64,000 nt of DNA from positions 4,415 to 68,414 of IMG/VR virus record IMGVR_UViG_3300020045_001394. One strand, written 5' to 3'. The notes beneath the pieces are model-generated. The model was not told the origin of the DNA. It saw only the letters and a list, made by a program, of their open reading frames with translations, and did no database searches. The translations under genes and the position numbers were made by a program. This document shows positions 607-64,000 of this stretch, piece after piece. Origin of the DNA: a virus. Each line of letters begins with the position of its first letter. Positions within the stretch are counted from its first letter, which is position 1.

Positions 607-1291
607 AAATTCAGATTCTACTTGTCGTCAATAAACTCCTTTAATTGCTGGAAACCCCTTAAGCTTAATTCACTACAACGTGAAACCTTTAAACTGGTTT
701 GGGCGTGAATGTTTGAAAAGAATTAAGATTGGGCAATCAGCAGCAAAGACCGAAAGGTACTGTTCAACGACTAGTCGAAAGACGTACATCCAAGTGGGTG
801 GAAACGGGGAGGATGTTTGAAGTATTGTACATTTTGTAAAAAGACTTTAGATTTTAGTTATTTCTCAGAGAGAAAAGATAAGACTCATTTTGAAGATTCT
901 AATCCTGGGAAATATAAAACAAGATGCTTACCTTGTGATTCAGTTTACAGTAAACTTAGATTTTTCAATATTACAATTGAAGAGTTTAATAAACTAAAAG
1001 AAGACCAGAATGATTGCTGTAAGATTTGTGGTGTACACGAAGAGGCTTGTAGAAATAAGCAAGCTAAACACTATGGACTATACACAGATCATTGCCACTC
1101 TACTGGGAAGGTAAGAGGATTATTATGCCATAGTTGCAACCTACTAATAGGACATGCAAAAGATGATATTGATAATCTTAAGTCTGCGATACAATACTTA
1201 ACATCGTGATATAGTCTTATCTGCATGGAAACATGCAGCATTCGCAAGTGAATGGGCTGAGATTAACGCACTCAGTTTAAAACAATAAATG
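607..1291 (+). mobile_element. Group I self-splicing intron (IA2-like) in terL
   Basis: P1: exon TGACGAT(600-606) pairs with GTCGTCA(624-630), giving U606-G624. P10: TCTACT(617-622) pairs with 3' exon AGTAGA(1294-1299). Core elements AATTGCTGGAAA, GGCAATCAGCAG, GTTCAACGACTA(762-773) and GTGATATAGTCT(1206-1217). P7.1/P7.2 and P9 hairpins are present; terminal G1291. Splicing restores GHDD|IVDA. Confidence 0.95.
817..1209 (+). CDS. Intron-encoded homing endonuclease, endonuclease VII-like HNH family
   Basis: CxxC...CKICG...DHCHSTGKVRGLLCHSCNLLIG motif; sits in the P8 loop (GATGTT 812-817 / AACATC 1200-1205). Confidence 0.9.
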   Translation: MKYCTFCKKTLDFSYFSERKDKTHFEDSNPGKYKTRCLPCDSVYSKLRFFNITIEEFNKLKEDQNDCCKICGVHEEACRNKQAKHYGLYTDHCHSTGKVRGLLCHSCNLLIGHAKDDIDNLKSAIQYLTS

Positions 1292-9421: not shown

Positions 9422-10102
9422 ATGCAAACGAACTACAGTCACAGAAAACCAATCTACGGTTTTGGAATCAATGATTCCGACTATTTTGTAGCTACACAGG
9501 GACCAACTAGGAACTCTAGCGTGCTCTGCCCATACTACAAAAGATGGCACAATATGATGTATCGGGTATTCAATAATAAGAATACAGGACCATATGCATC
9601 CTACATTGATACAACAGTGAATGAAAGCTTTAAATACTTTATGGATTTTCGTAGGTGGGCAGAGCAGCAAGGATTCAGTCCCGAAAATCGTCACCTAATT
9701 GATTTGGATAAAGATATTCTCTTCCCTGGAAACAACGAGTATTCTTCTGATAAGTGTGCATTTGTAATTCAGAGAGTCAACAAGATTATCTCTACATCTT
9801 ATGGTACTCGCGGAGAGCTTCCTATCGGGGTTAGGTTTGAGGTTAGGTCTAATAGGTACACAGCTAAACTTCAAATCAATGGAAAGTCAAAATACCTTGG
9901 TACGTACCTTACAGAAGAACAAGCCCACAAAGCTTGGCAATTAGCTAAAGCTGATTATATGGAAGATTCTATTGCTAACTACGAACAAGAGTCAGAGAGT
10001 ATTGGTCTTGTTTATAGACCAGATGTAGTAGAAGCAATTTTAAAACGATCTACACTTCTCAGAGATGCTGCTGAAAGTGGAAAGATCATTAATAGTTTAT
10101 AA
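9422..10102 (+). CDS. Free-standing homing endonuclease-like protein (HNH-type, AP2-like C-terminus)
   Basis: YKRWHNM..R, LDKDIL.PGN..YS...C.F, and LPIGV...KSKYLGTY.T.E.A motifs; inserted between tail tube and chaperone genes. Confidence 0.8.
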   Translation: MQTNYSHRKPIYGFGINDSDYFVATQGPTRNSSVLCPYYKRWHNMMYRVFNNKNTGPYASYIDTTVNESFKYFMDFRRWAEQQGFSPENRHLIDLDKDILFPGNNEYSSDKCAFVIQRVNKIISTSYGTRGELPIGVRFEVRSNRYTAKLQINGKSKYLGTYLTEEQAHKAWQLAKADYMEDSIANYEQESESIGLVYRPDVVEAILKRSTLLRDAAESGKIINSL

Positions 10103-13800: not shown

Positions 13801-14292
13801 TCTACCGCCGCCAGTGCATACTTTGGTGGTGCTGGAGCAGGTGCAACATCCTCTGCCGGATCTACTGCAGCTGGATACAGTAGTACATACTTCCCTCAAG
13901 CTAAAGGTGGTGCTTGGGATAGCGGGACTAAGTTCTTTGCACAAGGTGGAGCATTCACTAACAGTATCGTATCCAATCCTACAGCCTTTGGTATGTCAGG
14001 TGGTGGTACTGGTGTAATGGGCGAAGCTGGTCCTGAAGCTATTGTCCCTCTTGCTAGGTCTTCTGATGGCTCTCTTGGTGTACGTCTTGTTGGTAGTAGT
14101 ACTGGAGCATCTGGTTCTGCTGTTAACGTTTATGTAAATGTATCCTCTGATGGTACTAGCTCTTCCTCTGATAGTCCTGCATACGAGGGCTTCGGTAAAG
14201 AGCTTGCTGACTTTGTAGACACTAGAGTTAATAGTCTTTTGAATAAAGGGCTCAAAGATGGTGGACAAATCAATAGAGCAATCAAAGGATAG
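10810..14292 (+). CDS. Tape measure protein (lambda gpH-like)
   Basis: 1160 aa, Ala-rich and helical; LPAQFTDIVVSLQGGQ and MGEAGPEAIVPL motifs. Confidence 0.95.
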   Translation: MPTIAELEIRVDSTPLERGTKALNDFAQASEKAASANEKKKSSDDKLASSSKQVADTAESAAKSTEKQSKELETLLGKIDPITKKLNDLAKQEAALFANKGNISTAAFDAYNTKLQESVDKLAGVGVAQRQASAGTEGVPDRLKAVAQAAFDAATAQERLTTATKGASEAEQGIVSSGAVSAANSRADAALKEYEAKRQLAQGTKGAADAERGQVSALSDLLAKIDPSISKLNELDRLQKELAKQKSSGAIGGEDFEKYNGILERSRTTQIKYNDALQTTGKTAKETAFALRGLPAQFTDIVVSLQGGQAPFTVLLQQGGQIKDTFGGIVPAFKAVGGALLGLINPLTVAGVALAAVSYYAYQGSQELTNFNKAVVASGGFSGTSTAQFVAYQNQIAGVTGTATQAAEALLALEASGKIVGDNFVAIGTAAVAFQKATGQAIQATVDDFASLAKDPVNAVVTLDDKYKFLTASVLTQINALKEQGDTSGAVTLAQAEMAKGVQDLADKTIQNLGTAERAWKGFKDAVLGAGSALASIGRDDPGAELASNQALLARTKTRLQEGNLLASGLSDAEVEKNPAYIYIKAQVEQAQKLVDLKNQEAEKEAEITRSRQAAVSATSRQIAGAEAAKSPVEKAQKALTDANRDQEKILTDAATRGVELTAEQLNNYTVYKAALERKLSDAVKAEENKSKTKSSPVDNTQIQEVKNNLDSIKSEYSNYYKEVTALGEANIVSRAATYASQKSILEAEAKAVDDAYEQQIAAIKRLQGNKSNSAQANISLNNQLNKAESDRAKAAEENDSKQEVLATKEKGRIDARTASIEAYNDALKQQIENTAVSGERQAAAVGKGDRQGRVDEALADNDRSYAKDQAKLAKSLSNGMDPEEYATNLKNLTAAHTAMADQIVANDARIQEANADWTNGFTKAIQNAADEGNNFADSVNRAVSGAFDSMGEALGTFVTTGKLNFSELTRSILVDLAKIAARQAASSALSSLFGLASTAASAYFGGAGAGATSSAGSTAAGYSSTYFPQAKGGAWDSGTKFFAQGGAFTNSIVSNPTAFGMSGGGTGVMGEAGPEAIVPLARSSDGSLGVRLVGSSTGASGSAVNVYVNVSSDGTSSSSDSPAYEGFGKELADFVDTRVNSLLNKGLKDGGQINRAIKG

Positions 14293-19900: not shown

Positions 19901-20608
19901 GATCTAACTGATGCGCTTCGTGGATGGGATAGCCTTACTAGTTTCAACCAAGAAGTTAAAGTAAGAGCAGAACAAGACTTAGCGATTGTCAGTAATATAA
20001 CAACACTCACAGCTCAAGTGGATACAAACAAAGGTCAAGTTACTGATCTTGAGCAAGTAGTTGTTACCAATAATGCAGCCACCGCTACAGCTATTCAACA
20101 GCTTCAAGTTAATGTCAATGGTAACACTGCGCTTATCAATACTACAAGCGAAGCTCTTGCAGATACTAATGGTAAACTTAGCACAATCTGGTCTGTTAAG
20201 ATGGAACTTAATACTAATGGACAGTATGTAGCAGCAGGCGTTGGTCTGAGTATCGAAGCTAACGGTGTTGGTGCATTGCAAAGTCAGTTCTTGGTTAATG
20301 CTAATAGATTTTCGGTAATTAACGGCGCTGGTGGAACGAGTATTCCATTCATTGTTGAGAACAACCAAGTATTTATTCAGAGTGCATTTATCCAAGACGG
20401 TAGTATCACCATGCTTAAGATTGGAGATGCTTTGCAGTCTGATAACTATGTTGCAAATTCTCTTGGCTGGAGACTGACTAAAGCTGGCACATTTGAGATT
20501 AATGGTAGTGTTGCAGGTCAAGGTAAGATGACTATGACTAATAGATCATTAAGAGTATATGATGCTGCTGGAGTTAAACGTGTGCAATTGGGAGACCTTA
20601 CGGAATGA
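16970..20608 (+). CDS. Central tail fibre / host-specificity protein (lambda gpJ-like)
   Basis: 1212 aa; WTDNPAW and GCTSRGEA motifs, FN3-like segments, CBM-like segment, DUF1983-like C-terminus. Confidence 0.95.
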   Translation: MQDLEKEYGAKFNAYVPVHEGSKGGQEEAHTPVETPNNLQSVAYAKVLVAVGEGELAGTPTGRDIYLNGTPLIGPGGEENFGGVTWEWRSGTVDQPYIQGNPEVSNETTINFSLKYDTPWVRQITKVSLSAVRVTLNFPALQQQLTNGDTVGYSINYAIDIATDGGPFVTYQNYTVSGKTNSAYERTHRVNLPKNPSSGWTIRVRRTTVDSTSSSVQDSMSVKSFTEVVDAKQRYPNTALLFVQFDSRLFGGGSIPAISVKVKGRIIRVPSNYDPETRTYSGVWSGDFKWAWTDNPAWVFLDIVTNERFGLGNRVNLNQVSKWDLYEVSQYCDVMVDDGKGAGTLEPRHTCNVYLQSETDAWQVLRDICSIFNGMTYWNGNEFIAIADKEESIDNIPTFSRADVVEGNFDYQATDERSIYTSALVSYDEPTNHYGTQVEAVWEKAEILRWGGDRQTKLSAIGCTSRGEAQRKGKYNLLTNLYNRTVTFKTGLQGLNSKVQPGKIIGVADPLIAGKPFTGRLKSGTVTVVTLDRATEAKSGDRLFVALRDGTQQARTIDQVQGSVVTVSTAYSEVPMANAIWYLEASDLKNQLFKVTKLVHSGNGVYEVTGVEYNQSKFAAIDNGARLESRPVSKVPPAFLNPPSPITVTAASFIEQTLAVTTMTASWAAVQNAVLYEGQYKIGQGDWITLGTTGAQEFNVRGIYTGEYVVRVRSINALGIKSLWGLSSTTPLEGKAGAPPSLASLTITPLIFGQRLNWSFLPGSEDVARTEIYQSTTPSFALATKLGDFAYPQITHDINGLAAGVTFYYWARLIDRTGNIGPFIPLSTLNGVQGISSNNAADYEVYFSGQIKNSSLGQNLADRIDLIDGDGPGSVNERISHLTDALEWNETSTYLAGDTVRVGQRLYQAKINVPVNTSPPNETYWQDIGTITQTVNALALQVTQNTTKIEEVDGRLTATASQLTALRAQYRNDNGEGDLTDALRGWDSLTSFNQEVKVRAEQDLAIVSNITTLTAQVDTNKGQVTDLEQVVVTNNAATATAIQQLQVNVNGNTALINTTSEALADTNGKLSTIWSVKMELNTNGQYVAAGVGLSIEANGVGALQSQFLVNANRFSVINGAGGTSIPFIVENNQVFIQSAFIQDGSITMLKIGDALQSDNYVANSLGWRLTKAGTFEINGSVAGQGKMTMTNRSLRVYDAAGVKRVQLGDLTE

Positions 20609-20931
20609 GTTTTGGAATGAGAATATGGGGTAGCAATGGGGCTCTCCAGATAGATGAGAATTCTTTTACTGTAAGAATTATTTACTCGGCAATTGTATCT
20701 CCCTCTGGACGTAGCACATTCATAAGTATCCCTGGAGTTGCACCTTCTACACATTCAGCAGTTTGTTTTCCAGTAGGCGCTTATGATAACACTGCGCAGT
20801 TTACTAGTGCTATTCAGTTTACACCAATTGTTGGTAGTGGAGGTGTTACAGTCTACTTTGGAAGCCCTGCTGCTGGTACGGGGCCAACTGGTACTACTCC
20901 TCAGAGACTGCTTGTTATGAGGTATCGTTAA
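20605..20931 (+). CDS. Tail tip accessory protein
   Basis: FGMRIW...G N-terminus; coupled to gpJ by ATGA overlap. Confidence 0.6.
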   Translation: MSFGMRIWGSNGALQIDENSFTVRIIYSAIVSPSGRSTFISIPGVAPSTHSAVCFPVGAYDNTAQFTSAIQFTPIVGSGGVTVYFGSPAAGTGPTGTTPQRLLVMRYR

Positions 20932-21587
20932 TGACTTATGGATTAACATTTACAAATAATAGTGATGTTGTAACCCTTGATTCTGAATTCTCCAGGCTTG
21001 TTGTCTTGAGAGAAGGTACGTGGAGTGGGACAGGCTCTGGTGTTTACGTACCCTTTGGTCAAACTATAGCTACTATAGAAGCACCGCTAGTGTTTGTACG
21101 ACCAAGCCAATCAAATACATTTAGTTACTGTGTGGTTACAGGTTCTGCTGGTGCATGGACAGGTTTCTCTTTTATAGGGATTGTTGGTCAAGAAACTTCT
21201 GGAAACTGGTTCGCTGGAGCTTTTAAGTCAAACCCTACAGCAACATACGGTCTTCGTTTGTGGGATGAGTACTCGGAGCTTCTATTTGACAATGACACAC
21301 CTTGTGCGCAATTTACAAGGACGATTACAGGCTGGTCTTACTTGGGAGCTACACAAACAAGTCAGGGCGTATACAGACTAAGTTGGACAGCAAACTCTCC
21401 ACTGAACACCGGAGATTATATGCTTATAAATAATATAGCGATGGATATGGCAGGAATAACTTCTAGACAGGGAAAACAGTATGCTGTGTGGGAGTATAAT
21501 AATAATCGTCTTGTTATTCAGGCAGTGGGGGTTGACCTTCCAACCGCACAGTATATTCCAGTAGTATTTGCAAAACCAATATCTTAG
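20931..21587 (+). CDS. Tail tip accessory protein
   Basis: YGL.F.N and YGLRLWD...LLFD repeats typical of genes following gpJ. Confidence 0.6.
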   Translation: MTYGLTFTNNSDVVTLDSEFSRLVVLREGTWSGTGSGVYVPFGQTIATIEAPLVFVRPSQSNTFSYCVVTGSAGAWTGFSFIGIVGQETSGNWFAGAFKSNPTATYGLRLWDEYSELLFDNDTPCAQFTRTITGWSYLGATQTSQGVYRLSWTANSPLNTGDYMLINNIAMDMAGITSRQGKQYAVWEYNNNRLVIQAVGVDLPTAQYIPVVFAKPIS

Positions 21588-26322: not shown

Positions 26323-27956
26323 TCATCTTCTCCTTTACTTTTATTTTGTGTATCCAAACTACCACGTTTAATATTCCTTTGAGCCTTACGAGAATCACGC
26401 TTAGCTCGTTCATTCTTACGATACTCTTGAATCTCTTCAGCGTATTCATGATCTTTTTGTTTAGACATTTTAACTACTTGTTTCAAGGGGTGATCCTATT
26501 TAAAGATAAATTTATTTGCATATTCTTGAGGAGCAATACTCAACAGAGTAGTGGCTACATCCACTGCTGCATTATACGTCCCTCTATTGCTTGTGTAAAG
26601 ACTTATTGTCTTGTTTAGACGAGACACAATATATTCTGTATTGCAGCGAAGATCATAAGTCTCTGTGTAAATATCAGATAGCTCAGCATCATATTCATCA
26701 AGATATTGTGCTGTCTCTTCGCTAGTCATGTGCTCAGAGAAGTCTGTGAACAGAGAATTACACACTATTCGGATAAGCTCGTTGTTAGATGTCATTTAAT
26801 GCTATCCCAATCGAAATTAAGCTTAGACTTTAGCAGAGCAATCTCTTCTTGTAAAGCCTTCACTTCTGAAATGTGGTCTTCGTAAAGAATCCATTCACCA
26901 TCTTCAATCATATCCATGGCACTTGAGTAAGGACCAATATCATAGCGTTGAATGCTCATGCTTCATATTCCTCTGTAATCTCTTTGATATTACCAACAAT
27001 TCGATGATAACCGCCGGGCCTACCAAAGTCAATAAAAAAGTTATGACCTATGGCAAACAGATAGCCAGGCCTAACGTCCTCTGCCTTAACGGTTCGTGAT
27101 GAGTTGTCATCAAGGTCCATAAATGTACGACCAACCCATGTCTCTACAAAATGCTGCATCTGTAGTCGGGGTGTCCATGAATCGCAAGCATCATCTACAG
27201 GAAATTGCCAAAGCTCTTGTAAGGTGCAGTTGGTACGTTTAACAAGATTCTTTACACTTTCATACTCATCAAAATTCTCTTTGCTGAAGTTGTCAATCAG
27301 CTTCTCAAGATTATCATGGAGATTATCAATTTCAAGCAATGTGCTTTCTGGAATATTACGCTGTTTACCAAGTTCTCGGCAGGCTGTCATTTACTAATAC
27401 TCTGTTGTTTTACACTCATCATAATATCTTCATATTCTTTATCCAGCTTACCTTGAATATAAGCTGTCTCATACCAGTAGAAAGCTGATGCAATCTTAGG
27501 AAGGTTGTAGCTTCCATTTGACAAGCGACATGCTTTCACTTCATCAGGATTCATTCCTGTATAAGCTGCATATTTAAGCTCAAATTTATCGTGTCTAGTC
27601 ATCATATCGGTTTGCCTCCGCATAATCATAAGCCTCTTCAGCTTGTTCTGAGGCAATAATATCCCAAAGCTCGGATGAAATCAAGGAGGAATATTTGTCT
27701 CCAAGCAGGCTTAATTCCATAGTTAATACAGGTCGCTTACAGTCAGGCTCAAAATCACAGTCTTCATAAGTGGCAGATGTCAACTCCCATTCAAGATATT
27801 GCTCTCCGTAGTAATCCTCTGGACAAGCAGCTTGGAGAGAATATGTTCCCTTTGTATTGACAAAATCTGTAACACGAGCTGTTACGTAGAAATCAACATC
27901 TTGGGGAGAGATGCTATCGAGCTGACCAGCAAAGCATAGTTCATATTCGTCGTTGA

Positions 27957-28190
27957 TCATTTAGAACGCTCCAAAAGCATTGCATCTGCCATTTGATAAG
28001 CACAAGCTGCTACACTTGAGTTAATACTATCTTCATCCTCACGATAGTACCCATCTTCGAATGCTTTCCAAGCAACAGGAAGTGCTTTAGCTGCAAAGTA
28101 ATCACGAAGGCTCATACCCAGAACTGCACCGAATTCGTTGCTATCGCTCGGGAATGCCGGTGCACTCATATCTTTATTACTCAGGCTCAT
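27957..28190 (-). CDS. Conserved small phage protein (AFP...GMSLRDYFAAKA...AY..ADAML..R family)
   Basis: Motif familiar from many phage hypothetical proteins; function unknown. Confidence 0.8.
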   Translation of the reverse strand: MSLSNKDMSAPAFPSDSNEFGAVLGMSLRDYFAAKALPVAWKAFEDGYYREDEDSINSSVAACAYQMADAMLLERSK

Positions 28191-29176
28191 TATTTAATCT
28201 CCAGAATTTCTTTCTCGACCAGTTTAAGAATATCTTGCAATTTACCAACAGCGCTACGCTTGCTTGTCTCAGACTTTACTTTTACGTCCATTGTATTTAC
28301 ATAATTCATGGCTGTCTTAACGCCATTGTACACGTCTGACAACAATACACCAGATGCTTGCTCATTCCTAAAGTGAAGATTATAGCCTGTCTGGATAAGA
28401 GATTCAATCCACTCTTTGTCCTTCACATAGATACTCTCAAGATATTCAAAGCTGCCTTTGAACGTCCCTCGTGTTTTCTGAAGGTCTGCTTTAGGCATGA
28501 TATATTTACCAAAGGCTGTGACGTATTCCAAACCAGAATGTGTACTATTGGAGTACAGCTTCTTACCTTCAGTCTGAGAATAGCTCAAGCCTTCCTTAAA
28601 CTCAAAGCTCAGTGATTTAAATTTAGCATGAAGCATTGAGGCTACAGCTCGTGAACGATCATACTCATAGAGAGGAACGTCAGCTTTTCCTGTCAAGAAG
28701 CCTGCAACAATATAAGGATTACCGCTGTCTTGACGGATATGGCTACGATCAATCAGCATAGGTTCTGAATAGGAAGTCTCTTCTTTGTAAACAGCTTTCC
28801 ATTGAGATACAAACTTGCGATATTCAAATTCAGCTTCAAGAGATTCCCACTCTTGTTCTCCATCTTCATATTCTGTGCATTTAGACTTAAGCTCAGAGAT
28901 AAAATCTTTGTAGGATTCAACAGACAGAAGATCGTCAGTAATCCCATCTCGTACTGGCTGATATCCAATCAGAACATTAGTCTTGAATATAGCACGAATG
29001 TTCTCTACGTCATTAACACTCACTTGATGACGGACATTATAGGAGTTGTAGCCTGTGTTACTTACTACTTCTCCGTCAATAAGGTATACACCACAAGGAA
29101 GTTCTACGATATTAACACCAAGATCATCAATGCTCACCACTTTCAATACTTGTGTTGCTGGAGCTAGGATAGTCAT
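28190..29176 (-). CDS. Hypothetical protein, 328 aa
   Basis: Long ORF with GAGG RBS; no motif recognised. Confidence 0.8.
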   Translation of the reverse strand: MTILAPATQVLKVVSIDDLGVNIVELPCGVYLIDGEVVSNTGYNSYNVRHQVSVNDVENIRAIFKTNVLIGYQPVRDGITDDLLSVESYKDFISELKSKCTEYEDGEQEWESLEAEFEYRKFVSQWKAVYKEETSYSEPMLIDRSHIRQDSGNPYIVAGFLTGKADVPLYEYDRSRAVASMLHAKFKSLSFEFKEGLSYSQTEGKKLYSNSTHSGLEYVTAFGKYIMPKADLQKTRGTFKGSFEYLESIYVKDKEWIESLIQTGYNLHFRNEQASGVLLSDVYNGVKTAMNYVNTMDVKVKSETSKRSAVGKLQDILKLVEKEILEIK

Positions 29177-30906: not shown

Positions 30907-32091
30907 TCAGTACATCTCGTACCAAGCATCAATCAAGCTAATGTCTGTTGTTCCTCCGTTAGTGGTGACAGCGTACTCCCAACCGCCAGGCACGGTGACA
31001 GTAAGACCTTCTTGGGCTCCTACGACCGTAGGCTGTATTGTACTGAAGCTAAACCATTGGGAAGAAGAGTTGAGACGAACAACCACCTGTGTGTATCGCG
31101 TAGTGGATGTGGTGGGCTTATGTCTTACGAATACGATCTGCTCTGAGGCATTACCATTCCTGTAGTAGACGTTGACAGCACGAGAGCCCTTCACCTCTCT
31201 CCAGATTCGTGGCACTTGTCCAAGGAATGTTGGTACTTGAGAAGCAGCTAGCTTTCCTGTAGAATCCAAGCTCGCAACACCACTGGCCGCGCCTTTCTGT
31301 GTGAGGGGTAGAAATGTACTGTCAGCATATGTCTTAGCTGCTGCTTGTGCAGCGGTGGCTTTAGTCTGAGAGCCCGTTGTTGTTTCCTTTGCATCCCAGC
31401 CCGAGATTTGAGTAGGAGACAACCACTTACGGCTAGCTGTCTCAGTAACCATGTCGGCTGTATAGTCAGCAGTCTTAGCCACAACTGGCCCATATCTACC
31501 ATTAAAGGAGCTTACCACATTTGCGCTAGAACTGGCATCCCACTTATTTATCTGATCTGAGGTTACAAATCTTTTATCCGTGGTCTCAGAGATTTGGTTT
31601 GAGCTGTAGTCCCCAGTCTGAGGTCCAATATTTCCTGTACGACCATTGAAAGATGCAACCCCAATACCAAGGGCATTACCAAGCTTTGACCAATTAGAAT
31701 CAATGGCTGGGTCTGAGTTTGCATCCAAACCATATGCATCCCCTGTGCTACTCTCGTAAGCAATTGTTAAATCAGCATAACTTGAAAGGGCTAGGCGTGC
31801 TGCCCTATTAGCCACATTAACCTTACGTCCGACAGGGGACTCTGGAAGCTGCTCATACGGCACTTTACCAGAAACAAGGGATGCTTTATTCAACAAAGAA
31901 GATTCTGCTGATGCAAGTCTAGCATCTTGTGTAACATCTTTAGCTTGTAGTTCTGCAATTTGTGGAGAGAAATCAGTTCCACCTCCATCGCCAGGTGGCT
32001 CAAGAAGCCCCTCTAACACTCCAGTAGTAGCAAGACCAAAGCCACCCACCCTAGCAATATATTCTGCTAGCTGATGTTTATTAACACTCAT
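30907..32091 (-). CDS. Orphan fibre-like structural protein (second tail fibre or head fibre)
   Basis: Two V.SFNGR.G...DY...ET...W/F...QI..WDA repeats, GVASLD..GK...QVP motif, and a WR.V..SR....Y.N...VP.G..Y.V...W.E fibre-tip-like C-terminus. Confidence 0.7.
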   Translation of the reverse strand: MSVNKHQLAEYIARVGGFGLATTGVLEGLLEPPGDGGGTDFSPQIAELQAKDVTQDARLASAESSLLNKASLVSGKVPYEQLPESPVGRKVNVANRAARLALSSYADLTIAYESSTGDAYGLDANSDPAIDSNWSKLGNALGIGVASFNGRTGNIGPQTGDYSSNQISETTDKRFVTSDQINKWDASSSANVVSSFNGRYGPVVAKTADYTADMVTETASRKWLSPTQISGWDAKETTTGSQTKATAAQAAAKTYADSTFLPLTQKGAASGVASLDSTGKLAASQVPTFLGQVPRIWREVKGSRAVNVYYRNGNASEQIVFVRHKPTTSTTRYTQVVVRLNSSSQWFSFSTIQPTVVGAQEGLTVTVPGGWEYAVTTNGGTTDISLIDAWYEMY

Positions 32092-32214
32092 ATTATTGTT
32101 TTATCCTTTTGATTATAGATGTGTTCAATAGTCAGTATATCATTACTTACTGTACTCTGTAAATAGAAGTGTTACAAAAGGAAATGGTTTGTATAGGAAT
32201 CTTGCTGTATGTCT

Positions 32215-32635
32215 ATTGCGTCGCAATGAATAGTGTATATTATGTGCATTGCACATGAACAACCAATCGTCCTTACGGACAACACAGAACATAAGGCTGT
32301 ACGCTGTACAGATAAAAATCAAACACAAATCAAGAAATCTCTTGACGTTGCTTTTGATCTGTCTTATAAGAAGTAATTACTTTCTGTGTGGACACACAGA
32401 ATATAGATCAAGATCACAAGCAACAGCTTGGATTTGTATTGGCTGTATTTTATTTTATGGCATTCCGTCAGGAATGGATACATTGACTCTGGTATCCGAA
32501 GGTGCGTCCCGTACCAAGGATATATAATATGGATGTCGTGGACTGGTACAGAGCTTTTGTACCAAGATTTGTGCTAATTTCAATAGCTCTGCTTGACATT
32601 CTGGTACATATGCTTGTACACTGAACATCGTTCAG
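32215..32635. repeat. Palindrome/hairpin array A (non-coding, at the strand-divergence point)
   Basis: About a dozen short inverted repeats, e.g. ATTGC-GTC-GCAAT 32215, ATGTGC-ATT-GCACAT 32242, CTGTAC-GCT-GTACAG 32297, TTCTGTGTG-GA-CACACAGAA 32382, CATTCC-GTCA-GGAATG 32461, CTGAAC-ATC-GTTCAG 32621. Confidence 0.85.
32405..32437. repeat. 33-bp element; perfect inverted copy at 63319-63351
   Basis: AGATCAAGATCACAAGCAACAGCTTGGATTTGT versus ACAAATCCAAGCTGTTGCTTGTGATCTTGATCT. Confidence 0.95.
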
Positions 32636-32663
32636 AATAGTACATTTAAGGAGAACAATTCTC

Positions 32664-33407
32664 ATGCAAGACAGAATTCAGAAAGTAAAAGATTTACGCA
32701 CACAAGGTTATAGTCGTGCTAAGATTGTCAGCATTACAGGGTATCCTGATCGTTTTGTGAGGGCTCACATGAAAGACGTAGAGAAGACAGGTAAGCCTCT
32801 TGTTTCAGCATTTGACAAGAGTGTAGCTGATGTGTTTCCTTTGTGCATCAGGCAACAAGGGTGCAAGGAGTGGGAAATGCGGGAGATTCTTCATAAGCAC
32901 TATGGTGTAGTTTGGAATACGTCTAAAGGCGTGTATGAATCTAGCTTCAATGCAAATACTCGTCAGCGTGTACGTGATCGTTGTAAGGAGCTAACTGAGG
33001 ATGGTCAAGTGGCTGTGTTCATTCCTGATTGGGTGGATATTGCAAACCCTACAGCGAGTCGAGTTGGTATCGAGTCATTAGCACTCAGCTTGCAAGAGTA
33101 TATCGAAAATTCTGTGGAGGAATTTATGAACAGTTTTGGCGCTCCGTTTGGAAGCACAGAGCGAGTGAAACAGGCATATGCAGCCCGTGAACATATCTTG
33201 AAGGTAGCAATCAGAGGGTATAGCTCAGAGCCTGTGGAATCTCTTCTTGAGAATACTAGGAACGCAACGGACACTATTGAGTACGGACTGTGTGACCTAC
33301 CTATTCCTAAGTTTGACAAAGGATATGAATCTCAGTCATTCCACCCTGAGCCTACAGATGATGGAGTGTTCCTTGATTTTGTTGAGAGTCAAGGATGGGT
33401 AAAATGA
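32664..33407 (+). CDS. Hypothetical protein with N-terminal HTH
   Basis: KVKDLRTQGYSRAKIVSITG..DRFVR HTH-like segment; AAGGAG RBS; promoter TTGACA(32593), 18 nt, TACACT. Confidence 0.75.
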   Translation: MQDRIQKVKDLRTQGYSRAKIVSITGYPDRFVRAHMKDVEKTGKPLVSAFDKSVADVFPLCIRQQGCKEWEMREILHKHYGVVWNTSKGVYESSFNANTRQRVRDRCKELTEDGQVAVFIPDWVDIANPTASRVGIESLALSLQEYIENSVEEFMNSFGAPFGSTERVKQAYAAREHILKVAIRGYSSEPVESLLENTRNATDTIEYGLCDLPIPKFDKGYESQSFHPEPTDDGVFLDFVESQGWVK

Positions 33408-50465: not shown

Positions 50466-51179
50466 GTGAACGAATTTGTTAACCAGGGTGCCCTGGAGTA
50501 CCTTGAATCCCTGAACAAGAGTTGTGTAGATCTTGTACTAACAGACCCACCATATGCAATCTCACGTCCAACAGGGTTTGCTTCAGGGGAGGGCAAGGGT
50601 AAAGACACAGACCGATTTCGTATTTCATATGAATTTGGGGAGTGGGATGTTGTAGATACAGATTATTTCCAGAAAGTATTCAATGAAGCTTATCGGGTAA
50701 TGAAAACAGGAGGGACGCTGATTTGTTTTTATGATGTATGGAAGATTACAGAGCTGAAAGGGATCCTTGAAGAATCTGGCTTTAAGATGTTCCGTTTAAT
50801 CGAGTGGGTTAAAACCAATCCAGTGCCAATTAATAGCAAAAGTCTGTACTTGTCCTCAGCTAAAGAGTATGCTATTGTTTGTGTTAAAGGTGGGAAGCCA
50901 AAATTCAATTCAAGCTATAACAAGGGTATTTTTGAGTATCCAATTTACCACGCGAAAGACCGCTGGCACACAACACAAAAAAGCTTGCCCTTGTTTGAAG
51001 AACTTGTTAAACTGCATACAGACGAAGGGGACACTGTTTTAGATATGTTCTCTGGTTCTGCAACAACACAGATTGCAGCTATTCGTCAAAAAAGACTGTA
51101 TGCTGGCTGCGAGAAAAACACTGAATTTTTTAATAAATGTAAACTAAGGATCGAAGAAAATGAAAAAATCTACCGCTAA
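50466..51179 (+). CDS. Orphan DNA methyltransferase (N6-A/N4-C, beta class)
   Basis: Motif IV TDPPY precedes motif I LDMFSGSATT; H.TQK. Confidence 0.92.
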   Translation: MNEFVNQGALEYLESLNKSCVDLVLTDPPYAISRPTGFASGEGKGKDTDRFRISYEFGEWDVVDTDYFQKVFNEAYRVMKTGGTLICFYDVWKITELKGILEESGFKMFRLIEWVKTNPVPINSKSLYLSSAKEYAIVCVKGGKPKFNSSYNKGIFEYPIYHAKDRWHTTQKSLPLFEELVKLHTDEGDTVLDMFSGSATTQIAAIRQKRLYAGCEKNTEFFNKCKLRIEENEKIYR

Positions 51180-57400: not shown

Positions 57401-60400
57401 ATGTCTAAATATGCTCTCGCTGAATCCATGATCAAAGCCATTATCATGGAACATGGCGCTCGAGGGTTGGCTGTAGCTCTGAATAATGCTTGCGTTAATG
57501 GGAAGGTATTCCTTCAAGCTGACCTGTTCTTGGGTAAGGATGACAGTATCCTGCAAGAGTGGTACAAAGGTATTGATAAGCTCTCTGAAGTAGCTAAGAA
57601 AATTAAATAAGGGGAAGAGATATGAGTTCTTGGCAAAATACCACTTCGCGCTCTAAAGGCTCAGACAGGAGCGAGATACGTTCCGTGGAGCTTTCGGTTG
57701 GGTTAGGCAGACTAGTTGTTACCAGGCACATCCACTACGAGCCTGACCAATGGACGGCAGTATTCGACGGTGTATTTTCTCGCGTAGTAGTGTCAAACGG
57801 CACCGTTGAAGATGCTAAACAAAAAGCTATCATTTTAGCAAACAAGAAGCTCTCTGAAATGATGACCCTACTCTCAGAGAGTGTGTGATTCTCTCCTAGC
57901 CCCGCATTGCGGGGCTTTCTTTCGCCCAGAATAAAGCTCTAAAATAATATAAATATTCCCAAAATAAATGCTTGACAGGGATGCCGCATCCCTCTAGAAT
58001 TCATCACATACAGAAGGAGACACAACGTCTCCTACACAAAAGGAAATTTAGAATGAAAAAGTTTATTGGCGAGCTTCGAGTTGGTGATGTTATCAACGCC
58101 CGTGTTAATAAGTCTCTTTATAAGACTCCGTGTGTTGTTGAGAGTATTTTATTTGTAACTCAAGACGAAGATTTCGAGTTTGCTGAAATGGTCCTTTCAA
58201 GTGGCTTGCTGCACAAAGAAACACAGACTTGGTATACAATTGAAACTGTAGAAGTACTTGAACGAAAGTAACCTTACAGAATCTTATTGACACATTGAGA
58301 ACATTCCAATAAGATTGCTACAACAAATAAATAATTGGAGAGATACCATGAATAACGAAGATCAAACTTACCTGTTACGTGCAGCCCTGGGTGACATGCT
58401 TAATTATTATGACCGAAACGCTTGTCAGCACGAAGATGTTTATCGAGGTGGTGCTATTTGGACTATCTGTGAGTCTTGTGGAAAGAAGTGGGCAGACGAT
58501 GAGGGTGGGTTTGTTCCCTATATAGAGCCTTTATTTGTTTCTTTGGCTCGACGAATCTTTGATAATAACTAAGAGAGCTGACACGCCATGCTCACACATA
58601 AACAAGAACGAATCATATCTACAGTGTTTGGCGTTATTGTAGGAATTCCTGTGCTATTGACAGTGGCTATCACATGCTGGATGATTTATAATGCTGTTTT
58701 GGTGGAGCTTGGCTTGTGAAAACTCTCCCATCTGAATTTAATTCAATCGTTAAATATCTTCAAGACAGTCCATCACCAGAATTTATTGAGGCTCAATATA
58801 TGAATGCTGTACATGATTTCGCTCAAGATTGGAAACCTAAGCAAGTAAAAATTATCCACAAGATTGAGGATGTTTTGAAGTTGGCTGCTCTTGTAGCTTG
58901 TACTTCTCTTATTGGGATGGTACTCTTTCAAGCCTGGCAGAGCCAGTGTAGCTAATACGTTTTAGCAAGAATGCGCTTATAGATGTAGCTAACCGTATAT
59001 GGAGAAAATAGATGCCCTTCTTTACCGTCGCGGTCGTATGCACAATGTCCTTGTGCTCTGATTATTACATTGACACAGCCTCAAATAAAGCGGATGCTAT
59101 CCTCAATATATCTTCTCACAATGAACAATATTTATCTATATGGGAAGATGAAAAAGGATTGACAGCTTGGCTCATTAAGCATAAGATTGGTGAAACAGTG
59201 TTTGAAATTGTCTCGCTTGATATTCAGACACAAGAAATTAACGAAGAGGAATTACCATGAATAAGGCTGAATTTGACTCTTGGTTCCATGCGCTAAGCTC
59301 TACTCATGTGTTGGGGCTTCTTGCACCAGTTTGTAAACGTATAACATCTTGCTCAGGAAATAATTATGTTATTGACGGAGATATAGATAATTTGCTAGCA
59401 TTCCTGTATCAAGAGAAGTATAATCAAGTTTTTGGAGAGGAAGAATAATGATCACAACACGATTGCACGGAATGTACAAAGCGCTTGGCGACAATGTAGG
59501 AGTGATTCATCTTCGAACATTGTTGACTTCCAGTACATGGCTTGCTACTCTTTGCGCTGAAGATCCTAGTGATCTTAGTAAAGCTAAGTTAATTAAACAG
59601 ATTTGAGGAGAAGCAGAAATGAATTTCAAGGTTGGCCTTACTGGACCAGATCATAGTCCGACTGCACAAACAAAATGGTATGCTCAGGTTATGCTAAATT
59701 CTTGGGATGAACTCCCCATTGGAGCAAAAACATTTGCGTTTGGGGATACTCCAGAAAAGGCGATGAGTGAGCTTATGTTGTACCTACGTGCAGAGGCCCT
59801 TTTGTTGCTTTTCAACACAAATAAGGACACAAAATGATCGACCAATCTCTAATGCGTATCAATGGTCACGTATTGTCTATCATCGCTCCTAGCTTGCTGG
59901 AGGCGTACAAATTCCAGGAATTGGAAGGCTTTAAACAGGCTAGTGTGCTTGTGAAAGAGGATGGCACTATTTCTGTTAGCTTTCCTCTTGATAAGGAGTC
60001 TCAGAAACGATATGCATGGCTATATCATAAAATGAAAGGACTTAATGGGGATGATAAGCCACGTCCTCCAAGTGGAAAGCCTCCAAAGGGGAGCGGCCCT
60101 AATAATGGAGGCTCTGGTGGTACACCGTCAGCGGGCAGTATTACAGAATTTCAGAATGTGCAAGCTATTGCTGCTTAAGGATAAATCATGAATAGAATCT
60201 TTACATACGACGCTTTCGATTCCACCGGTGTAGCTGAGACCTTCACGCTTAAGGTGAATAGCTTACAAAATTCTGATAAGGAATATCTTGGAGATCTAGA
60301 TTATGAAGTACTAGAAGGAGATATCCGCTTGTTGTCTGAAAGTCAAGCTCTAGATATGGAAATTTGTATTTCGGAGCAATATATCGAAAGATGGAATGAC

Positions 60401-60412
60401 TATATGAATTGA
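57401..60412 (+). other. Cluster of small early-type hypothetical genes (57401-57610, 57622-57888, 58053-58271, 58348-58572, 58716-58955, 59012-59260, 59257-59448, 59619-59837, 59834-60178, 60188-60412)
   Basis: Short ORFs with RBSs downstream of strong promoters. Confidence 0.75.
57898..57923 (+). terminator. Rho-independent terminator
   Basis: AGCCCCGC-ATT-GCGGGGCT-TTCTTT. Confidence 0.85.
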
Positions 60413-60420
60413 CAAATATT

Positions 60421-60488
60421 GCCCACCATTTTGGTGGGCTTTTCTTTGTCTTTATTTTGTTGACGATGTTCTTGATGTACAGTATGCT
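60421..60488 (+). promoter_or_regulatory. Terminator + promoter cassette, copy 3 (plus strand)
   Basis: GCCCACCA-TTT-TGGTGGGC-TTTTCTTTG...TTGACG(60460), 17 nt, TATGCT; same stem as the 26 kb and 30.9 kb copies. Confidence 0.8.
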
Positions 60489-60674
60489 GTGATTACTGGA
60501 GCGGTTCAGAGGTAAACAGGAAGAGTGGACGCTATTCTAATAAAATCTATTAGGAATTGCTCCCTGATAGAAATCTTTGTAGAAAATAATCAAAAGTATT
60601 TGTTGACTGGGACACAGAACTTGGTAGAATGGACACATCGAAAGGCAAAACGCCTTAATAAAGAGAAATAGATA

Positions 60675-60791
60675 ATGGCTTACGTAATCATTGCCGCTGA
60701 ATACTTTGCTGTAGCTTCCCCTATATTACTAATCCTTGGTGGCTTATGTTCTCTGATTTCTGATTATCGTTTTAAGAAATCTTTAAAATAA
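60675..60791 (+). CDS. 38-aa single-TM peptide (not in the ORF track)
   Basis: MAYVIIAAEYFAVASPILLILGGLCSLISDYRFKKSLK; downstream of the promoter at 60603. Confidence 0.55.
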   Translation: MAYVIIAAEYFAVASPILLILGGLCSLISDYRFKKSLK

Positions 60792-60862
60792 GTGTTGACT
60801 GAGAGACGAAAGTCTCTCATAATCCACCCTATCGAAACGACAAACCACCCGGAGCAGCAGCC

Positions 60863-61036
60863 ATGAACTTCCAAGCCAACCAAGCAATCACTTTGATAAA
60901 GACCAATATTATTAACGACAAAAAGCTGATTGGTAAGAAAGGGGTCGTAGACTTCCAATGCAAAGATAGCATGGTTTGGGTAAAGTTTGGTCGTACTTCT
61001 CGATGCGTACCTCCTGAATTTATCCAAGCAATCTGA
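60863..61036 (+). CDS. 57-aa SH3/KOW-like small protein (not in the ORF track)
   Basis: GGAG RBS; ...IGKKGVV......VWVKFG...; promoter at 60795 and terminator at 61041. Confidence 0.7.
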   Translation: MNFQANQAITLIKTNIINDKKLIGKKGVVDFQCKDSMVWVKFGRTSRCVPPEFIQAI

Positions 61037-61040
61037 GACT

Positions 61041-61064
61041 AGGCCCTTCGGGGCCTTTTTATTT
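61041..61064 (+). terminator. Rho-independent terminator
   Basis: AGGCCC-TTCG-GGGCCT-TTTT. Confidence 0.9.
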
Positions 61065-61123
61065 ATCTATATAAAACTTTATGTTCGCCCATTCTTCCTT
61101 CTCAGGAGTGACCCAGTGCTAGA

Positions 61124-61152
61124 ATCATAATATACACCTATACTCTTGTCAA
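61124..61152 (-). promoter_or_regulatory. Divergent minus-strand sigma70 promoter with no evident downstream gene
   Basis: Minus strand TTGACA, 17 nt, TATGAT. Confidence 0.65.
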
Positions 61153-61261
61153 GACCTAAAATAATCTCAATTCTCATGAAAATATCTGTTGACAGGGAAT
61201 ACATGTGCTGTAGAATTGGTCACAAGAAAGCAAATAACCCCCTCCTAAAAGGAAGAATGAA

Positions 61262-61405
61262 ATGAAAAGCCCTGAATTCTACGAAGGTTTCCACTCTTTC
61301 AAAGCACGCCTTACTGTTGAGGCTTGCCCTTATCGTTTTAACCCTTCTGCTGCAAAGGAATGGAAGCGTGGTTTTGCTAAGGCTCAGTCCGAAGTTAAGC
61401 CATAA
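61262..61405 (+). CDS. 47-aa Rmf/CrpP-fold-like protein (not in the ORF track)
   Basis: MKSPEFYEGFHSFKARLTVEACPYRFNPSAAKEWKRGFAKAQSEVKP, with G...CPY...W..G pattern; own promoter at 61189. Confidence 0.7.
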   Translation: MKSPEFYEGFHSFKARLTVEACPYRFNPSAAKEWKRGFAKAQSEVKP

Positions 61406-61594
61406 GCAGTAGGGTAGCCTATACAAAAGATTATCGCGTCTTTTAGGGGCTAAAAAGCATTAGAAATAGCCTATTTCTCTTTGAAATAATTGGTAGTTTG
61501 AGAGAATAATGCTTGCATGCTATTCCAGTTGCTATATACTTGGTCTCAAGAGGGAAGGAAAGAGTCCTACCCAAGATGAAAGAGATATCCCACC

Positions 61595-61735
61595 ATGTAC
61601 AATGTAATCAACCGAAACACTGGTGCTGTTGTAAGCAAGAATCTCAAATCTAAAGATGCTGCTCGTAAAGCTCGTGATCGTCACGACAGCAAATATGGGA
61701 CATATGTCCACAGCATCCAAGCTGTTACCCTCTAA
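61595..61735 (+). CDS. 46-aa hypothetical protein (not in the ORF track)
   Basis: MYNVINRNTGAVVSKNLKSKDAARKARDRHDSKYGTYVHSIQAVTL; downstream of the promoter at 61513. Confidence 0.65.
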   Translation: MYNVINRNTGAVVSKNLKSKDAARKARDRHDSKYGTYVHSIQAVTL

Positions 61736-62235
61736 GGGAATCACTACCATGCAAGCAACCCCTGTCAGAATGAGTACGATTGAACAACGAATATCTTCTA
61801 ACGAAGATGCTCTGATCTCTTGGGAAAGTAGCTTGGCTAAATAAGGCTGCTCATAAGGGTGTACGCTTCGCCTACATGAGTGATGAACAATAAGAGGTTG
61901 AACTATTGGAAATTGAGCGTAGGAGGGAGGAACAAGGTATTTGGAAAGCTGGACAACGTTAGGGGGAAGTGTTATAAAGAATAGCCCAACAATTTGTTGG
62001 GCTTTAGACGTTTGGAGGAATAATGTGACAGAAGAAGGGAACGCATACAACCCGCTATGTAAATGTAAGGACTGTACAGGGGAGGGTCTGGGACGGATAA
62101 CTCACACCAGTCCGGAACAATCAAAGAAAAGACTCGATAAAGCTTGTAAGGAAAGGGAATTGTACCTTCTAGAGATGAATCTACTAGACCCTTGCCAGCG
62201 CATATACTTAGGAATTAAACCATAAAGGAGGGGAA

Positions 62236-62946
62236 ATGGAAGACACAGAAGTCCAAGTGGACTATAAAGAGATAACCGAACTGCAAAATAAACTAGATGA
62301 GAAGCTTAATATTCTTGCTACATCTGGGGAGAAAGGAAGGGCCTTTGCTATTGCCAACAGCTTTTCTAAGAAACTAGCGAAGAACCTATCTGCTAAGAGT
62401 ACAAGGGAGAAGTTAGGGCACACTTTTGGAATGACCGCCTGTACGTTACAAATTCAGTATGCACTAAAGCCTATTGATACAATCAAGATGACAGCAGAAC
62501 ATCTTGGCTATGACTTCGATAAAATAAAGGAGGGCGGTATGCACCATGACAAGTATTACCTAACTCATAGGTGGGTGTCGGGTAATCCTGAGTTCTTTAA
62601 TACAGAAGACAATCCATTACTGTCTAAAGTGGACCTTAGAGGGGCTGTTAGAGATGCCACAACCATTAGTAGCGGTATTGGTCAAATGCACAGTTATCAG
62701 GTGTTGGATGAACAAGTAAAGGCAATCCTCAAGGAAAACAAAGAAACCAAGAAAGAGTTGTCTGAAATAAAAGCTAAGCAATTGATCCAAGAAGTGGATC
62801 TAAAACATATCCAGGATGTTAGTGGTTGGGTGGGTGATCCTAAAGAGAAGGCTAGGAACCTGCGCATAGCAGGGTATAAATACCACGAAATTGCTAAGGC
62901 AATGAGTAAGGCTGAGAGCACTATCCGTAGATGGTTGTCAGAATGA
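62236..62946 (+). CDS. Hypothetical protein with coiled coil and C-terminal HTH
   Basis: AAGGAGG RBS; LRIAGYKYHEIAKAMSKAESTIRRWL HTH. Confidence 0.8.
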   Translation: MEDTEVQVDYKEITELQNKLDEKLNILATSGEKGRAFAIANSFSKKLAKNLSAKSTREKLGHTFGMTACTLQIQYALKPIDTIKMTAEHLGYDFDKIKEGGMHHDKYYLTHRWVSGNPEFFNTEDNPLLSKVDLRGAVRDATTISSGIGQMHSYQVLDEQVKAILKENKETKKELSEIKAKQLIQEVDLKHIQDVSGWVGDPKEKARNLRIAGYKYHEIAKAMSKAESTIRRWLSE

Positions 62947-63077
62947 GCGCTTTTTGAGCGGTTCAAAAGGTGTTTTCCGCATGTAAAACATATATATGCG
63001 GAAAGTAGGAATGATACTAAAATGATACTTTTAAGGTGTTTTGTGCCTAATATAACATCTATAGACATAATTATATT

Positions 63078-63103
63078 GCCCTCTTGACTGAGGGCTTTCT
63101 TTT
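63078..63103 (+). terminator. Rho-independent terminator
   Basis: GCCCTC-TTGACT-GAGGGC-TTTCTTTT. Confidence 0.8.
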
Positions 63104-63126
63104 GTATGTACATTTTTGACTGAGTG

Positions 63127-63940
63127 CAATCATGACTGATTGGCCTTATCAGAATGATAGAAGAATGTGTATACTCAATGCGAACCGCATTGGACAGTGT
63201 AAGCTCATTGCAAGGCAATGGGGAATGTACGCCTTTGATCCTCGCTCTTGCCTTTCGGCAATATCCCTACCACCTACGACCTCACGGTCGTGCCTCTAAT
63301 AATAAAAAGAATCTAGACACAAATCCAAGCTGTTGCTTGTGATCTTGATCTTATCTCATGTGTCCCACATGGAACATTCTTGTATCCACTGCATAGCAGT
63401 GAAAGCATTAGCCATATCACATGCCTTGCATGTATCAGCACCATTCATTGGCAGCGCCAATAGCTTACACTCTCCTGTGCTGTAGCACAGAATATAGGGC
63501 TACTCCTCTCTACATATAACCATATCTCTGTAATAGTGAAAGCCTTATAAGATAAGGGATAGCCACAGTTTCACTGTGAATATATCCTCCCCTTTGTGGA
63601 CACAAAGAATACTATTATTTAGTGTACAAACTATTATTGTATTAATGATTAATATCGTGGTATTTAGGCTCTCTATCCACTGCCATGCAGTGAGTATTGT
63701 TATCTATCTCCGGGATATCCTCTCTGTAAGGCTTACTTACCTTTGGTATATAGGCTTATACCTCTAGTATGTTACCTTATCCTATTAGTATGTTAAGCAC
63801 ACTTCTCTATCTAAATCAACTCATTCTTGCATCGCAAGGTACATATCTCACCCATAATTAATAAATCCTGTCCAATTATATTATTCTATCGATACATCGA
63901 TAGCTATTAACACAATTCATTATCAATTCTCAGATGAGAA
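63127..63940. repeat. Palindrome/hairpin array B (non-coding)
   Basis: At least 17 short inverted repeats, mostly 5-7 bp arms with 3-4 nt spacers, starting at 63127, 63176, 63206, 63248, 63276, 63326, 63357, 63387, 63419, 63447, 63475, 63543, 63564, 63592, 63678, 63826 and 63886. Confidence 0.9.
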
Positions 63941-64000
63941 GCTTAATATTCTTGCTACATCTGGGGAGAAAGGAAGGGCCTTTGCTATTGCCAACAGCTT
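63932..64000 (+). repeat. Exact direct repeat of 62295-62363 (offset 1637 bp; runs off the window end)
   Basis: 69 identical nt, AGATGAGAAGCTTAATATTC...GCCAACAGCTT. Confidence 0.95.

Follow-up and report, generated by a model that had tools for sequence, protein, structure and literature searches.

The final 64,000 bases of the 68,414-base IMG/VR virus contig IMGVR_UViG_3300020045_001394, referred to here as the window, end in a region crowded with short inverted repeats (contig coordinates equal window coordinates plus 4414). IMG/VR classes the contig as linear, and CheckV puts its completeness at 66%. The window encodes a siphovirus protein set (portal, protease, major head protein, tape measure, J-like tail protein) together with a T7-type primase-helicase, DNA polymerase I and ribonucleotide reductase. 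The gene order runs from portal, protease, capsid and tail through a small minus-strand block to primase-helicase, DNA polymerase, ribonucleotide reductase and a series of small genes, after which comes the element described here, an array of perfect mini-palindromes. The array is a real, strongly non-random, conserved cis-element. A preliminary description, made from the sequence of the window alone, had spelled out twelve of its palindromes, and all twelve were recovered at the positions given, although the last item on its list, TTCTC-agat-GAGAA (63927-63940), straddles a doubtful junction at the contig end. It had further stated that the region has no credible gene and is not a CRISPR, and both statements agree with what was found: the longest open reading frame (ORF) within the region is 63 aa, and there is no constant repeat family, only a few 9-mers that recur.

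For the region 63127-63940, a search with arms of at least 5 bp and spacers of 2-4 nt gives 24 matches with 20 distinct starts. Arms of at least 6 bp give 19 matches, and 15 distinct palindromes have spacers of 3-4 nt. The suspected excess over composition-matched sequence is borne out by 2000 dinucleotide-preserving shuffles of the region, in which the expected number is 0.58 +/- 0.75 (maximum 4) against 15 observed for arms of at least 6 bp, and 2.98 +/- 1.73 (maximum 11) against 20 observed for arms of at least 5 bp. The window-wide means per 814 bp are 1.2 and 3.1, respectively. Across 1264 sliding windows of 814 bp, the 99th percentile is 6 and the array region is the maximum, making it the densest such stretch in the 64 kb. 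The runner-up, 31851-32664, has a count of 6 and coincides with a divergent intergenic region. Features of the locus, and the best-scoring segments of five related genomes discussed below, are collected in Table 1.

Table 1. Features of the array locus (window coordinates), and best 1-kb segments for palindromes in six genomes (coordinates of each record).
Feature	Position	Strand	Remarks
Second, smaller palindrome cluster	32213-32640	none	Divergent intergenic region; carries inverted copy of shared element
Last gene before array, 236-aa protein	62236-62946	+	Weak C-terminal helix-turn-helix
Intrinsic terminator	63078-63105	+	GCCCTC-ttgact-GAGGGC plus T-run; closes upstream plus-strand operon right before first palindrome
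Mini-palindrome array	63127-63905	none	15 perfect palindromes, arms 6-8 bp, spacer 3-4 nt, plus others with 5-bp arms; cut short by contig end
Shared 51-54-bp element, array copy	63319-63369	-	Terminator-like hairpin CAAGC-aaca-GCTTG plus GATTTGT on minus strand
Core run of five palindromes, 28-32 bp apart	63357-63490	none	CATGTG-tcc, CACTGC-ata, ACATGC-ctt, ATTGGC-agc, CTGTGC-tgta; near-identical in G001 save loops
parS-like 16-mer	63361-63376	none	2 mismatches to Pseudomonas parS palindrome
Doubtful contig end	63932-64000	+	Exact 69-nt copy of 62295-62363 (inside upstream gene), joined at 10-nt microhomology; outside array
Best 1-kb segment, source contig	67401-68400 (contig coordinates)		Count 15; next best elsewhere 6
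Best 1-kb segment, G001	27851-28850		Count 12; next best elsewhere 4
Best 1-kb segment, phiPMW	20101-21100		Count 10; next best elsewhere 5
Best 1-kb segment, SYP	1-1000		Count 12; next best elsewhere 5
Best 1-kb segment, PaP1	90551-91550		Count 12; next best elsewhere 4
Best 1-kb segment, PAK_P3	62451-63450		Count 9; next best elsewhere 5

Neighboring palindromes are often similarly spaced, with six of the fourteen centre-to-centre gaps measuring 28-32 bp. Folded as single-stranded DNA, the region reaches z = -5.85 (20 shuffles); ten individual hairpins have energies of -3.5 to -6.7 kcal/mol each, and a T-rich tail follows just one plus-strand hairpin. The array is 61% AT, against 59% for the whole window. 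The dispersed copies typical of REP-, BIME- or MITE-like repeats are not seen, as a self-BLAST of the window yields one 54-bp element, which the array has in common with 32.4 kb.

Conservation among close relatives

The closest cultured relatives are the Pseudomonas phages phiPMW (103 kb) and vB_PpS_SYP (107 kb, hereafter SYP), with 67% identity in the capsid protein and 64% in the portal protein. A more remote group, whose capsid and portal proteins are 28% and 36% identical, comprises the Pakpunavirus/Nankokuvirus myoviruses PaP1, KPP10 and PAK_P3 as well as the FelixO1-like phages. Judged by these proteins, the source phage is an uncultured relative of phiPMW and SYP. The array region itself has no blastn match among 50,697 phage records, and two DNA patterns taken from the window brought up nothing new in viral or metagenome contigs. 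A protein homologue search found five homologues of 82-93% identity in Logan assemblies. No RNA run was among the sequencing runs listed for the region; one bears the label RNA-Seq but is probably DNA. Assembled contigs from four wastewater runs of three studies were placed on window positions 60000-64000, and a 30-mer from their continuation past 63941 led to G001, a 90,622-base IMG/VR genome with CheckV completeness of 100% and a 127-base end overlap. A conserved 82-aa neighbour protein, used as a query for related loci, likewise found G001 only. G001 is colinear with the entire source contig, which implies that about 22 kb of the genome is absent from the latter, and it aligns to window positions 63146-63941 with 79% identity.

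In this pairwise alignment, identity differs sharply among the parts of the array: 87.0% in arms (160/184), 75.9% in linkers (412/543) and 36.0% in loops (18/50). Ten of the fifteen palindromes survive in G001 with arms of at least 5 bp, nine of them with the same arms, and five are lost. Because the arms are conserved above the linkers, purifying selection on the arms seems to be at work, which argues against a purely neutral origin. This pattern of conservation is equally compatible with hairpins whose loops are free to vary and with binding sites for a dimeric protein that does not touch the spacer. Compensatory arm changes, proposed earlier as a test of selection on pairing, were found in the alignment with G001, but only once: a single surviving palindrome has changed from CTTTGT/ACAAAG to CTTTGC/GCAAAG. 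The related proposal, that selection acts on structure rather than sequence, holds across genera, where geometry is kept while the sequences cannot be aligned, and fails between close relatives, where the arm sequences are what is most conserved.

The loops change in a peculiar way. Three loops in G001 are exact reverse complements of their counterparts (ctt/aag, tgta/taca, ttc/gaa), and the closer wastewater relatives, at roughly 90-95% identity, add two more flipped loops (tgta/taca and ggac/gtcc). Loops that turn into their reverse complement while the arms stay intact are a known mark of intrastrand pairing accompanied by template switching. Read in this way, the flipped loops show that the arms of the palindromes do pair with each other in vivo, during replication if at no other time.

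Palindrome clusters and phage termini

We scanned six genomes (the source contig, G001, phiPMW, SYP, PaP1 and PAK_P3) in 1-kb windows for palindromes with arms of at least 6 bp and spacers of 3-4 nt. Against a background density of 0.9-1.2 per kb in all six, representing at least three named genera, every genome has exactly one dominant cluster (Table 1). The array sequences cannot be aligned between genera, yet the geometry is alike. Among 73 palindromes pooled from the six phages, the closing pair is C-G in 46 and the apex reads GC...GC in 30; a pyrimidine lies immediately 5' in 56 and a purine immediately 3' in 53. The phiPMW cluster fills an unannotated gap, 20016-20814, and that of SYP fills the gene-free start of its record, each at the syntenic place. 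The slot, compared for the window, G001, phiPMW and SYP against PaP1, follows the reductase and small-gene block and precedes a minus-strand block encoding NAMPT, phosphoribosyl pyrophosphate (PRPP) synthetase and ligases.

For two of these phages the chromosome ends are on record. PaP1 has a double-stranded terminal redundancy of 1190 bp that holds g156 and g157, established by restriction mapping and terminal run-off sequencing according to the genome paper (PMC3652863). In the PaP1 record these genes lie at 90557-90694 and 90879-91481, and the sole palindrome cluster of the genome, 90555-91652, fills the terminal repeat, against a background of 1.08 per kb. ORF g157 (200 aa, HQ832595 90879-91481) overlaps the palindromes and may be a spurious gene call. 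For PAK_P3, a PhageTerm prediction given in a 2026 Hi-C paper (PMC13510664) puts direct terminal repeats of the T7 type "around 63 kb", and the sole cluster, at 62.45-63.45 kb, sits beside a 922-bp gene-free gap, 62817-63739. The gene order of PaP1 is colinear with the window, and PaP1 ends where the array sits. Because of this colinearity, and because the PaP1 and PAK_P3 clusters fall at mapped ends, we read the array as the core of a terminal-repeat and packaging region. Assembly breaks also fall in it: the source contig ends there, the SYP record starts there, and the two ends of the SYP record share an exact 351-bp overlap inside the array.

We therefore favor, with moderate confidence, the interpretation that the array belongs to the untranscribed terminal-repeat, packaging or chromosome-end region of a phiPMW-like phage; that the source phage has its own ends here we infer from homology of design and position. 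A packaging signal, compared at the time to the iss of phage T5, was one of several roles offered in the preliminary description, and it is the one that fits best, given the clusters on or at the mapped terminal repeats of PaP1 and PAK_P3. Under this interpretation the array would be the core of a gene-free, transcriptionally insulated stretch of about 1.2-1.5 kb that forms the direct terminal repeat. Terminase would cut concatemers at this repeat, giving T7-type ends, and incoming genomes would recombine or circularise through it. The mini-palindromes would be cis-acting DNA elements, their arms held complementary by selection and their loops free. What the hairpins might do is a matter of speculation, with candidate roles as signals for end cutting and repeat duplication, in annealing of the repeats, or as contacts for a DNA-organising protein.

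Several points weigh against this interpretation. The source phage was compared through assembled contigs only, which offer no pile-ups of read starts or ends for its own termini. The terminus of PAK_P3 is given in the text as "around 63 kb" rather than as exact coordinates, the phiPMW record starts elsewhere than at its array and the phiPMW paper reports no ends, and the end overlap of SYP covers just the first 351 bp of the array and may be an assembly artefact. Depth is ambiguous. In one wastewater run it is 554.7 on the contig over 63144-63756 and 293.1 over 62257-63173, a 1.9-fold step in what is contig depth rather than copy number; it is a faint hint of a doubled repeat, and two strains sharing the array could equally explain it. 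Two other runs have steps of 5- to 16-fold, which cannot be simple doubling of a repeat and so point to several strains sharing the array. Finally, FelixO1 (NC_005282) has the same architecture, with a 1.6-kb gene-free convergent gap at the syntenic place (12305-13928), but no palindrome cluster in the first 50 of its 86 kb, where the best 1-kb window holds 4. The array is consequently lineage-specific and no general requirement of this genome architecture.

Flanking features and competing explanations

The terminator ahead of the array has a homologue in G001 at 28882-28899. Together with a second terminator facing it, this homologue brackets a gene-free region of 1446 bp on which both flanking gene blocks of G001 converge. 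The dense part of the array corresponds to the first ~730 bp, and the bracketed region extends about 600 bp beyond the array of the source contig; the remainder, absent from that contig, holds two promoter-like sites and four further palindromes. Both promoter-like sites (28045-28074 and 27820-27847 on the G001 minus strand) contain GAGAAGAATATAAT, lie just past the array, and are oriented from the array toward the bidirectional terminator. An ORF of 50 aa or a short transcript that is not annotated may be located there.

The 236-aa protein encoded before the array has a homologue of 25% identity at the same place in G001, with a clearer HTH_23 match and weak matches to small-terminase-like helix-turn-helix domains, and none in phiPMW, SYP, PaP1 or PAK_P3. 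Used as a query, it identified no related locus in viral or metagenome contigs. The idea that a DNA-binding partner gene is conserved beside the array was rejected, the helix-turn-helix protein being common to G001 only.

The shared element of 51-54 bp has its second copy, inverted, at 32385-32437, in a divergent intergenic region about 31 kb away. G001 holds the same inverted pair at 28628-28697 and 59392-59460. The copy near 32.3 kb lies behind a promoter-like site, TTGACG-17-TATAAG, and a palindrome, and has a terminator-like hairpin at its end. The element might serve as an operator unit common to both places, as a site for pairing, or as a short transcript present in two copies, and the smaller palindrome cluster around its second copy may be a partner locus of the array.

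Wastewater relatives cover window positions 62257-63941. Past 63941, all four wastewater runs have one and the same different continuation, and G001 also diverges from the source contig there. The last 69 nt of the contig are probably a chimeric or strain-specific junction and not the true continuation. This junction is not a read-out of a terminal repeat, because the four runs and G001 continue differently after it. The same observation, together with the fact that a terminal repeat gives no end-to-internal junction, led us to reject the idea that a 1637-bp "restart" of the sequence is an untrimmed terminal repeat.

One further class of palindrome was compared with the array, using the Pseudomonas parS table in PMC4368675 as the reference. 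SYP (OQ183418) has parS-like sites at 294-309, 963, 4266, 6222 and 7655, all within 7.7 kb of its array, of which two match the P. aeruginosa parS2/3 16-mer exactly, two have one mismatch and one has two. phiPMW has three sites with one mismatch, at 15422, 20515 and 20735. Chance would predict far fewer than one per genome. These sites suggest, on sequence grounds, that putida-group phages recruit or titrate host ParB. As a general meaning of the palindromes, however, parS was rejected, since neither PaP1 nor PAK_P3 has a parS-like site at two mismatches or fewer. Separately, a parS-like motif in common with phiPMW occurs at 9866-9885, the very end of an unrelated high-GC IMG/VR contig.

Other explanations of the array have to be weighed against a terminal repeat. 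The most serious, though unlikely as an account of what is primary, is that the array is a double-stranded docking platform, in which every 6-N3/4-6 palindrome would be bound by a DNA-organising protein that is dimeric or reads structure and resembles nucleoid proteins or ParB; the protein would coat the region or bridge it whether or not the chromosome ends here. It overlaps with the terminal-repeat interpretation, is compatible with it, and differs solely in what comes first. Conserved arms around a free central 3-4 bp are what operators with an uncontacted spacer look like, and the spacing near 30 bp in 6 of 14 gaps is about three helical turns. The Hi-C study of PAK_P3 describes a 14-kb early loop whose tip is formed by two sequences free of genes and transcription, one side lying at the termini, and its authors propose a virion-borne, nucleoid-protein-like factor (PMC13510664). 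Within 45-75 kb of the PAK_P3 record, the only gene-free gaps of more than 400 bp are 50570-51081 and 62817-63739. The inverted element that links the second palindrome cluster to the array (51 bp, the pair also being present in G001) would suit such a platform, as would host-type parS sites in or near the SYP and phiPMW arrays. Against it, the arm sequences differ among themselves, so that one sequence-specific protein could not account for them; across genera, the arrays have no DNA-binding gene conserved beside them; and PaP1 and PAK_P3 lack parS-like sites at the threshold given above. A bolder synthesis, which we consider doubtful, joins the two ideas: the array would be a shape-read, telomere-like element whose palindromes extrude as hairpins or cruciforms to give a DNA-organising factor, either virion-borne or very early, a place to land. 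By pairing this end of the chromosome with the internal locus at 32.2-32.6 kb, the factor would form an early loop of the PAK_P3 type and drive circularisation through the terminal repeats, and host ParB would also be recruited through true parS sites in putida-group relatives. Extrusion in vivo is suggested by the flipped loops.

The remaining explanations meet with more direct objections. A replication origin, terminus or fork barrier might be expected where two convergent gene blocks meet: two long transcription units converge on the array, its hairpins could stall forks, and the sign of the GC skew changes there. However, GC skew in the window follows gene strand, none of the 11 matches to the DnaA-box consensus in the window falls in the array or at 32.0-32.7 kb, there are no iterons, and the AT content is barely raised (61% against 59%). 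The skew minimum reported by the phiPMW authors is at ~40 kb and not at the array, the PAK_P3 cluster is away from any convergence point, and Hi-C coverage of PAK_P3 is skewed from both extremities of the record toward the centre, not from 63 kb (PMC13510664). An origin, which had been among the roles first proposed, thus finds no DnaA boxes or iterons to stand on, and we consider this family of explanations very unlikely. Equally unlikely is a neutral by-product, in which small palindromes without function arise and are perfected through template switching at quasi-palindromes where non-coding DNA is free of constraint. The loop flips do demonstrate template switching at the array, and 5 of 15 palindromes are lost in G001; but arms are more often identical than linkers (87% against 76%), the rest of each genome and the 1.6-kb gap of FelixO1 have no cluster, and six genomes, from three or more named genera, each have it at one defined place. 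The least likely of all, to the point of being highly improbable, is that the array encodes a non-coding RNA of many hairpins or acts as a decoy, titrating defence or restriction proteins of the host. The region folds well as a single strand (z = -5.85), its palindromes resemble restriction-type sites, and the shared element includes a terminator-like hairpin on the minus strand. Yet the stems are weak (-3.5 to -6.7 kcal/mol), and searches of window positions 60000-64000 and of the G001 locus against Rfam 15 gave no match at E<=1; no tRNA or tmRNA was found at the locus either. A terminator precedes the array, no promoter-like site inside it scores above 9 of 12, and free loops and indels relative to G001 are hard to reconcile with an RNA fold whose loops are conserved. 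In PAK_P3, whose record draws on RNA-seq, no RNA is annotated in the array gap, and the loop-tip sequences are called devoid of transcription (PMC13510664). The earlier suggestion of a non-coding RNA finds no support, in view of the absence of an Rfam match, the terminator and the unannotated PAK_P3 gap, and none of the results speaks for the suggested decoy.

Comparison with known systems

The promoters of the N4 virion RNA polymerase have a stem of 5-7 bp and a 3-nt loop and are extruded from double-stranded DNA; there are three, placed before early genes and used by a giant virion polymerase. The array palindromes share this stem-loop geometry. They differ in number, with 15 or more hairpins, and in setting, with no genes downstream, no ORF over 63 aa in the array, and a tail protein of 1212 aa as the longest ORF in the window. 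Hairpin-flanked small inversions, known from template switching at quasi-palindromes, offer another likeness, in that the loops here are reverse-complemented between perfect arms. Template switching is a mutational signature, however, and not a functional class; it accounts for the turnover of the loops and not for the existence of the array.

Phage T5 has, in the Untranslated Repeat Region 3 or iss of its left repeat, a conserved, palindrome-rich non-coding stretch of more than 1 kb in or at the edge of a terminal repeat, and its importance is inferred from conservation (bioRxiv 10.1101/866236). The same source also gives T5 long direct repeats, a 131-bp inverted repeat pair, eight DnaA boxes, a 10-kb repeat and two-step injection (bioRxiv 10.1101/866236). 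The array of the source phage differs in having no DnaA-box consensus site and no repeats beyond a few 9-mers, and nothing about it suggests injection in two steps.

Terminal repeats of T7-type phages are usually regarded as plain duplicated sequence. The lineage to which the P. aeruginosa model phages PaP1 and PAK_P3 belong instead has, in or at its terminal repeat, a distinctive design of dense, short, sequence-diverse perfect palindromes with conserved arms and flipping loops. Such a signature might allow an assembly by itself to reveal where the chromosome of an uncultured relative ends. It might further supply a concrete cis-element for studies of end cutting, repeat duplication, circularisation and early genome folding, and a natural record of hairpin extrusion in vivo.

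This hairpin-array design appears to be undescribed in the PaP1, PAK_P3 and phiPMW papers. Palindromes or hairpins are not mentioned in the phiPMW paper or in the accessible parts of the PAK_P3 (PMC13510664) and PaP1 papers, and the PaP1 transcriptome paper makes no mention of features of the array. The PaP1 authors state that their genome has neither inverted repeats longer than 26 bp nor complicated secondary structure (PMC3652863). A literature search found no description of such arrays in terminal repeats, a result that is not proof of absence given its limited coverage of subscription journals, and nothing pertinent on parS in virulent phages.

The closest known systems are the terminal repeats of PaP1, a Pakpunavirus, and PAK_P3, a Nankokuvirus. 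They differ from the array in that the sequences cannot be aligned, and in that the source phage is a siphovirus of another lineage, at 28% capsid and 36% portal identity. They resemble it in their extent of ~1.2-1.5 kb with few or no credible genes, in colinear position for PaP1, and in the presence of a single, genome-unique cluster of 9-15 perfect 6-N3/4-6 palindromes, most of them closed by a C-G pair.

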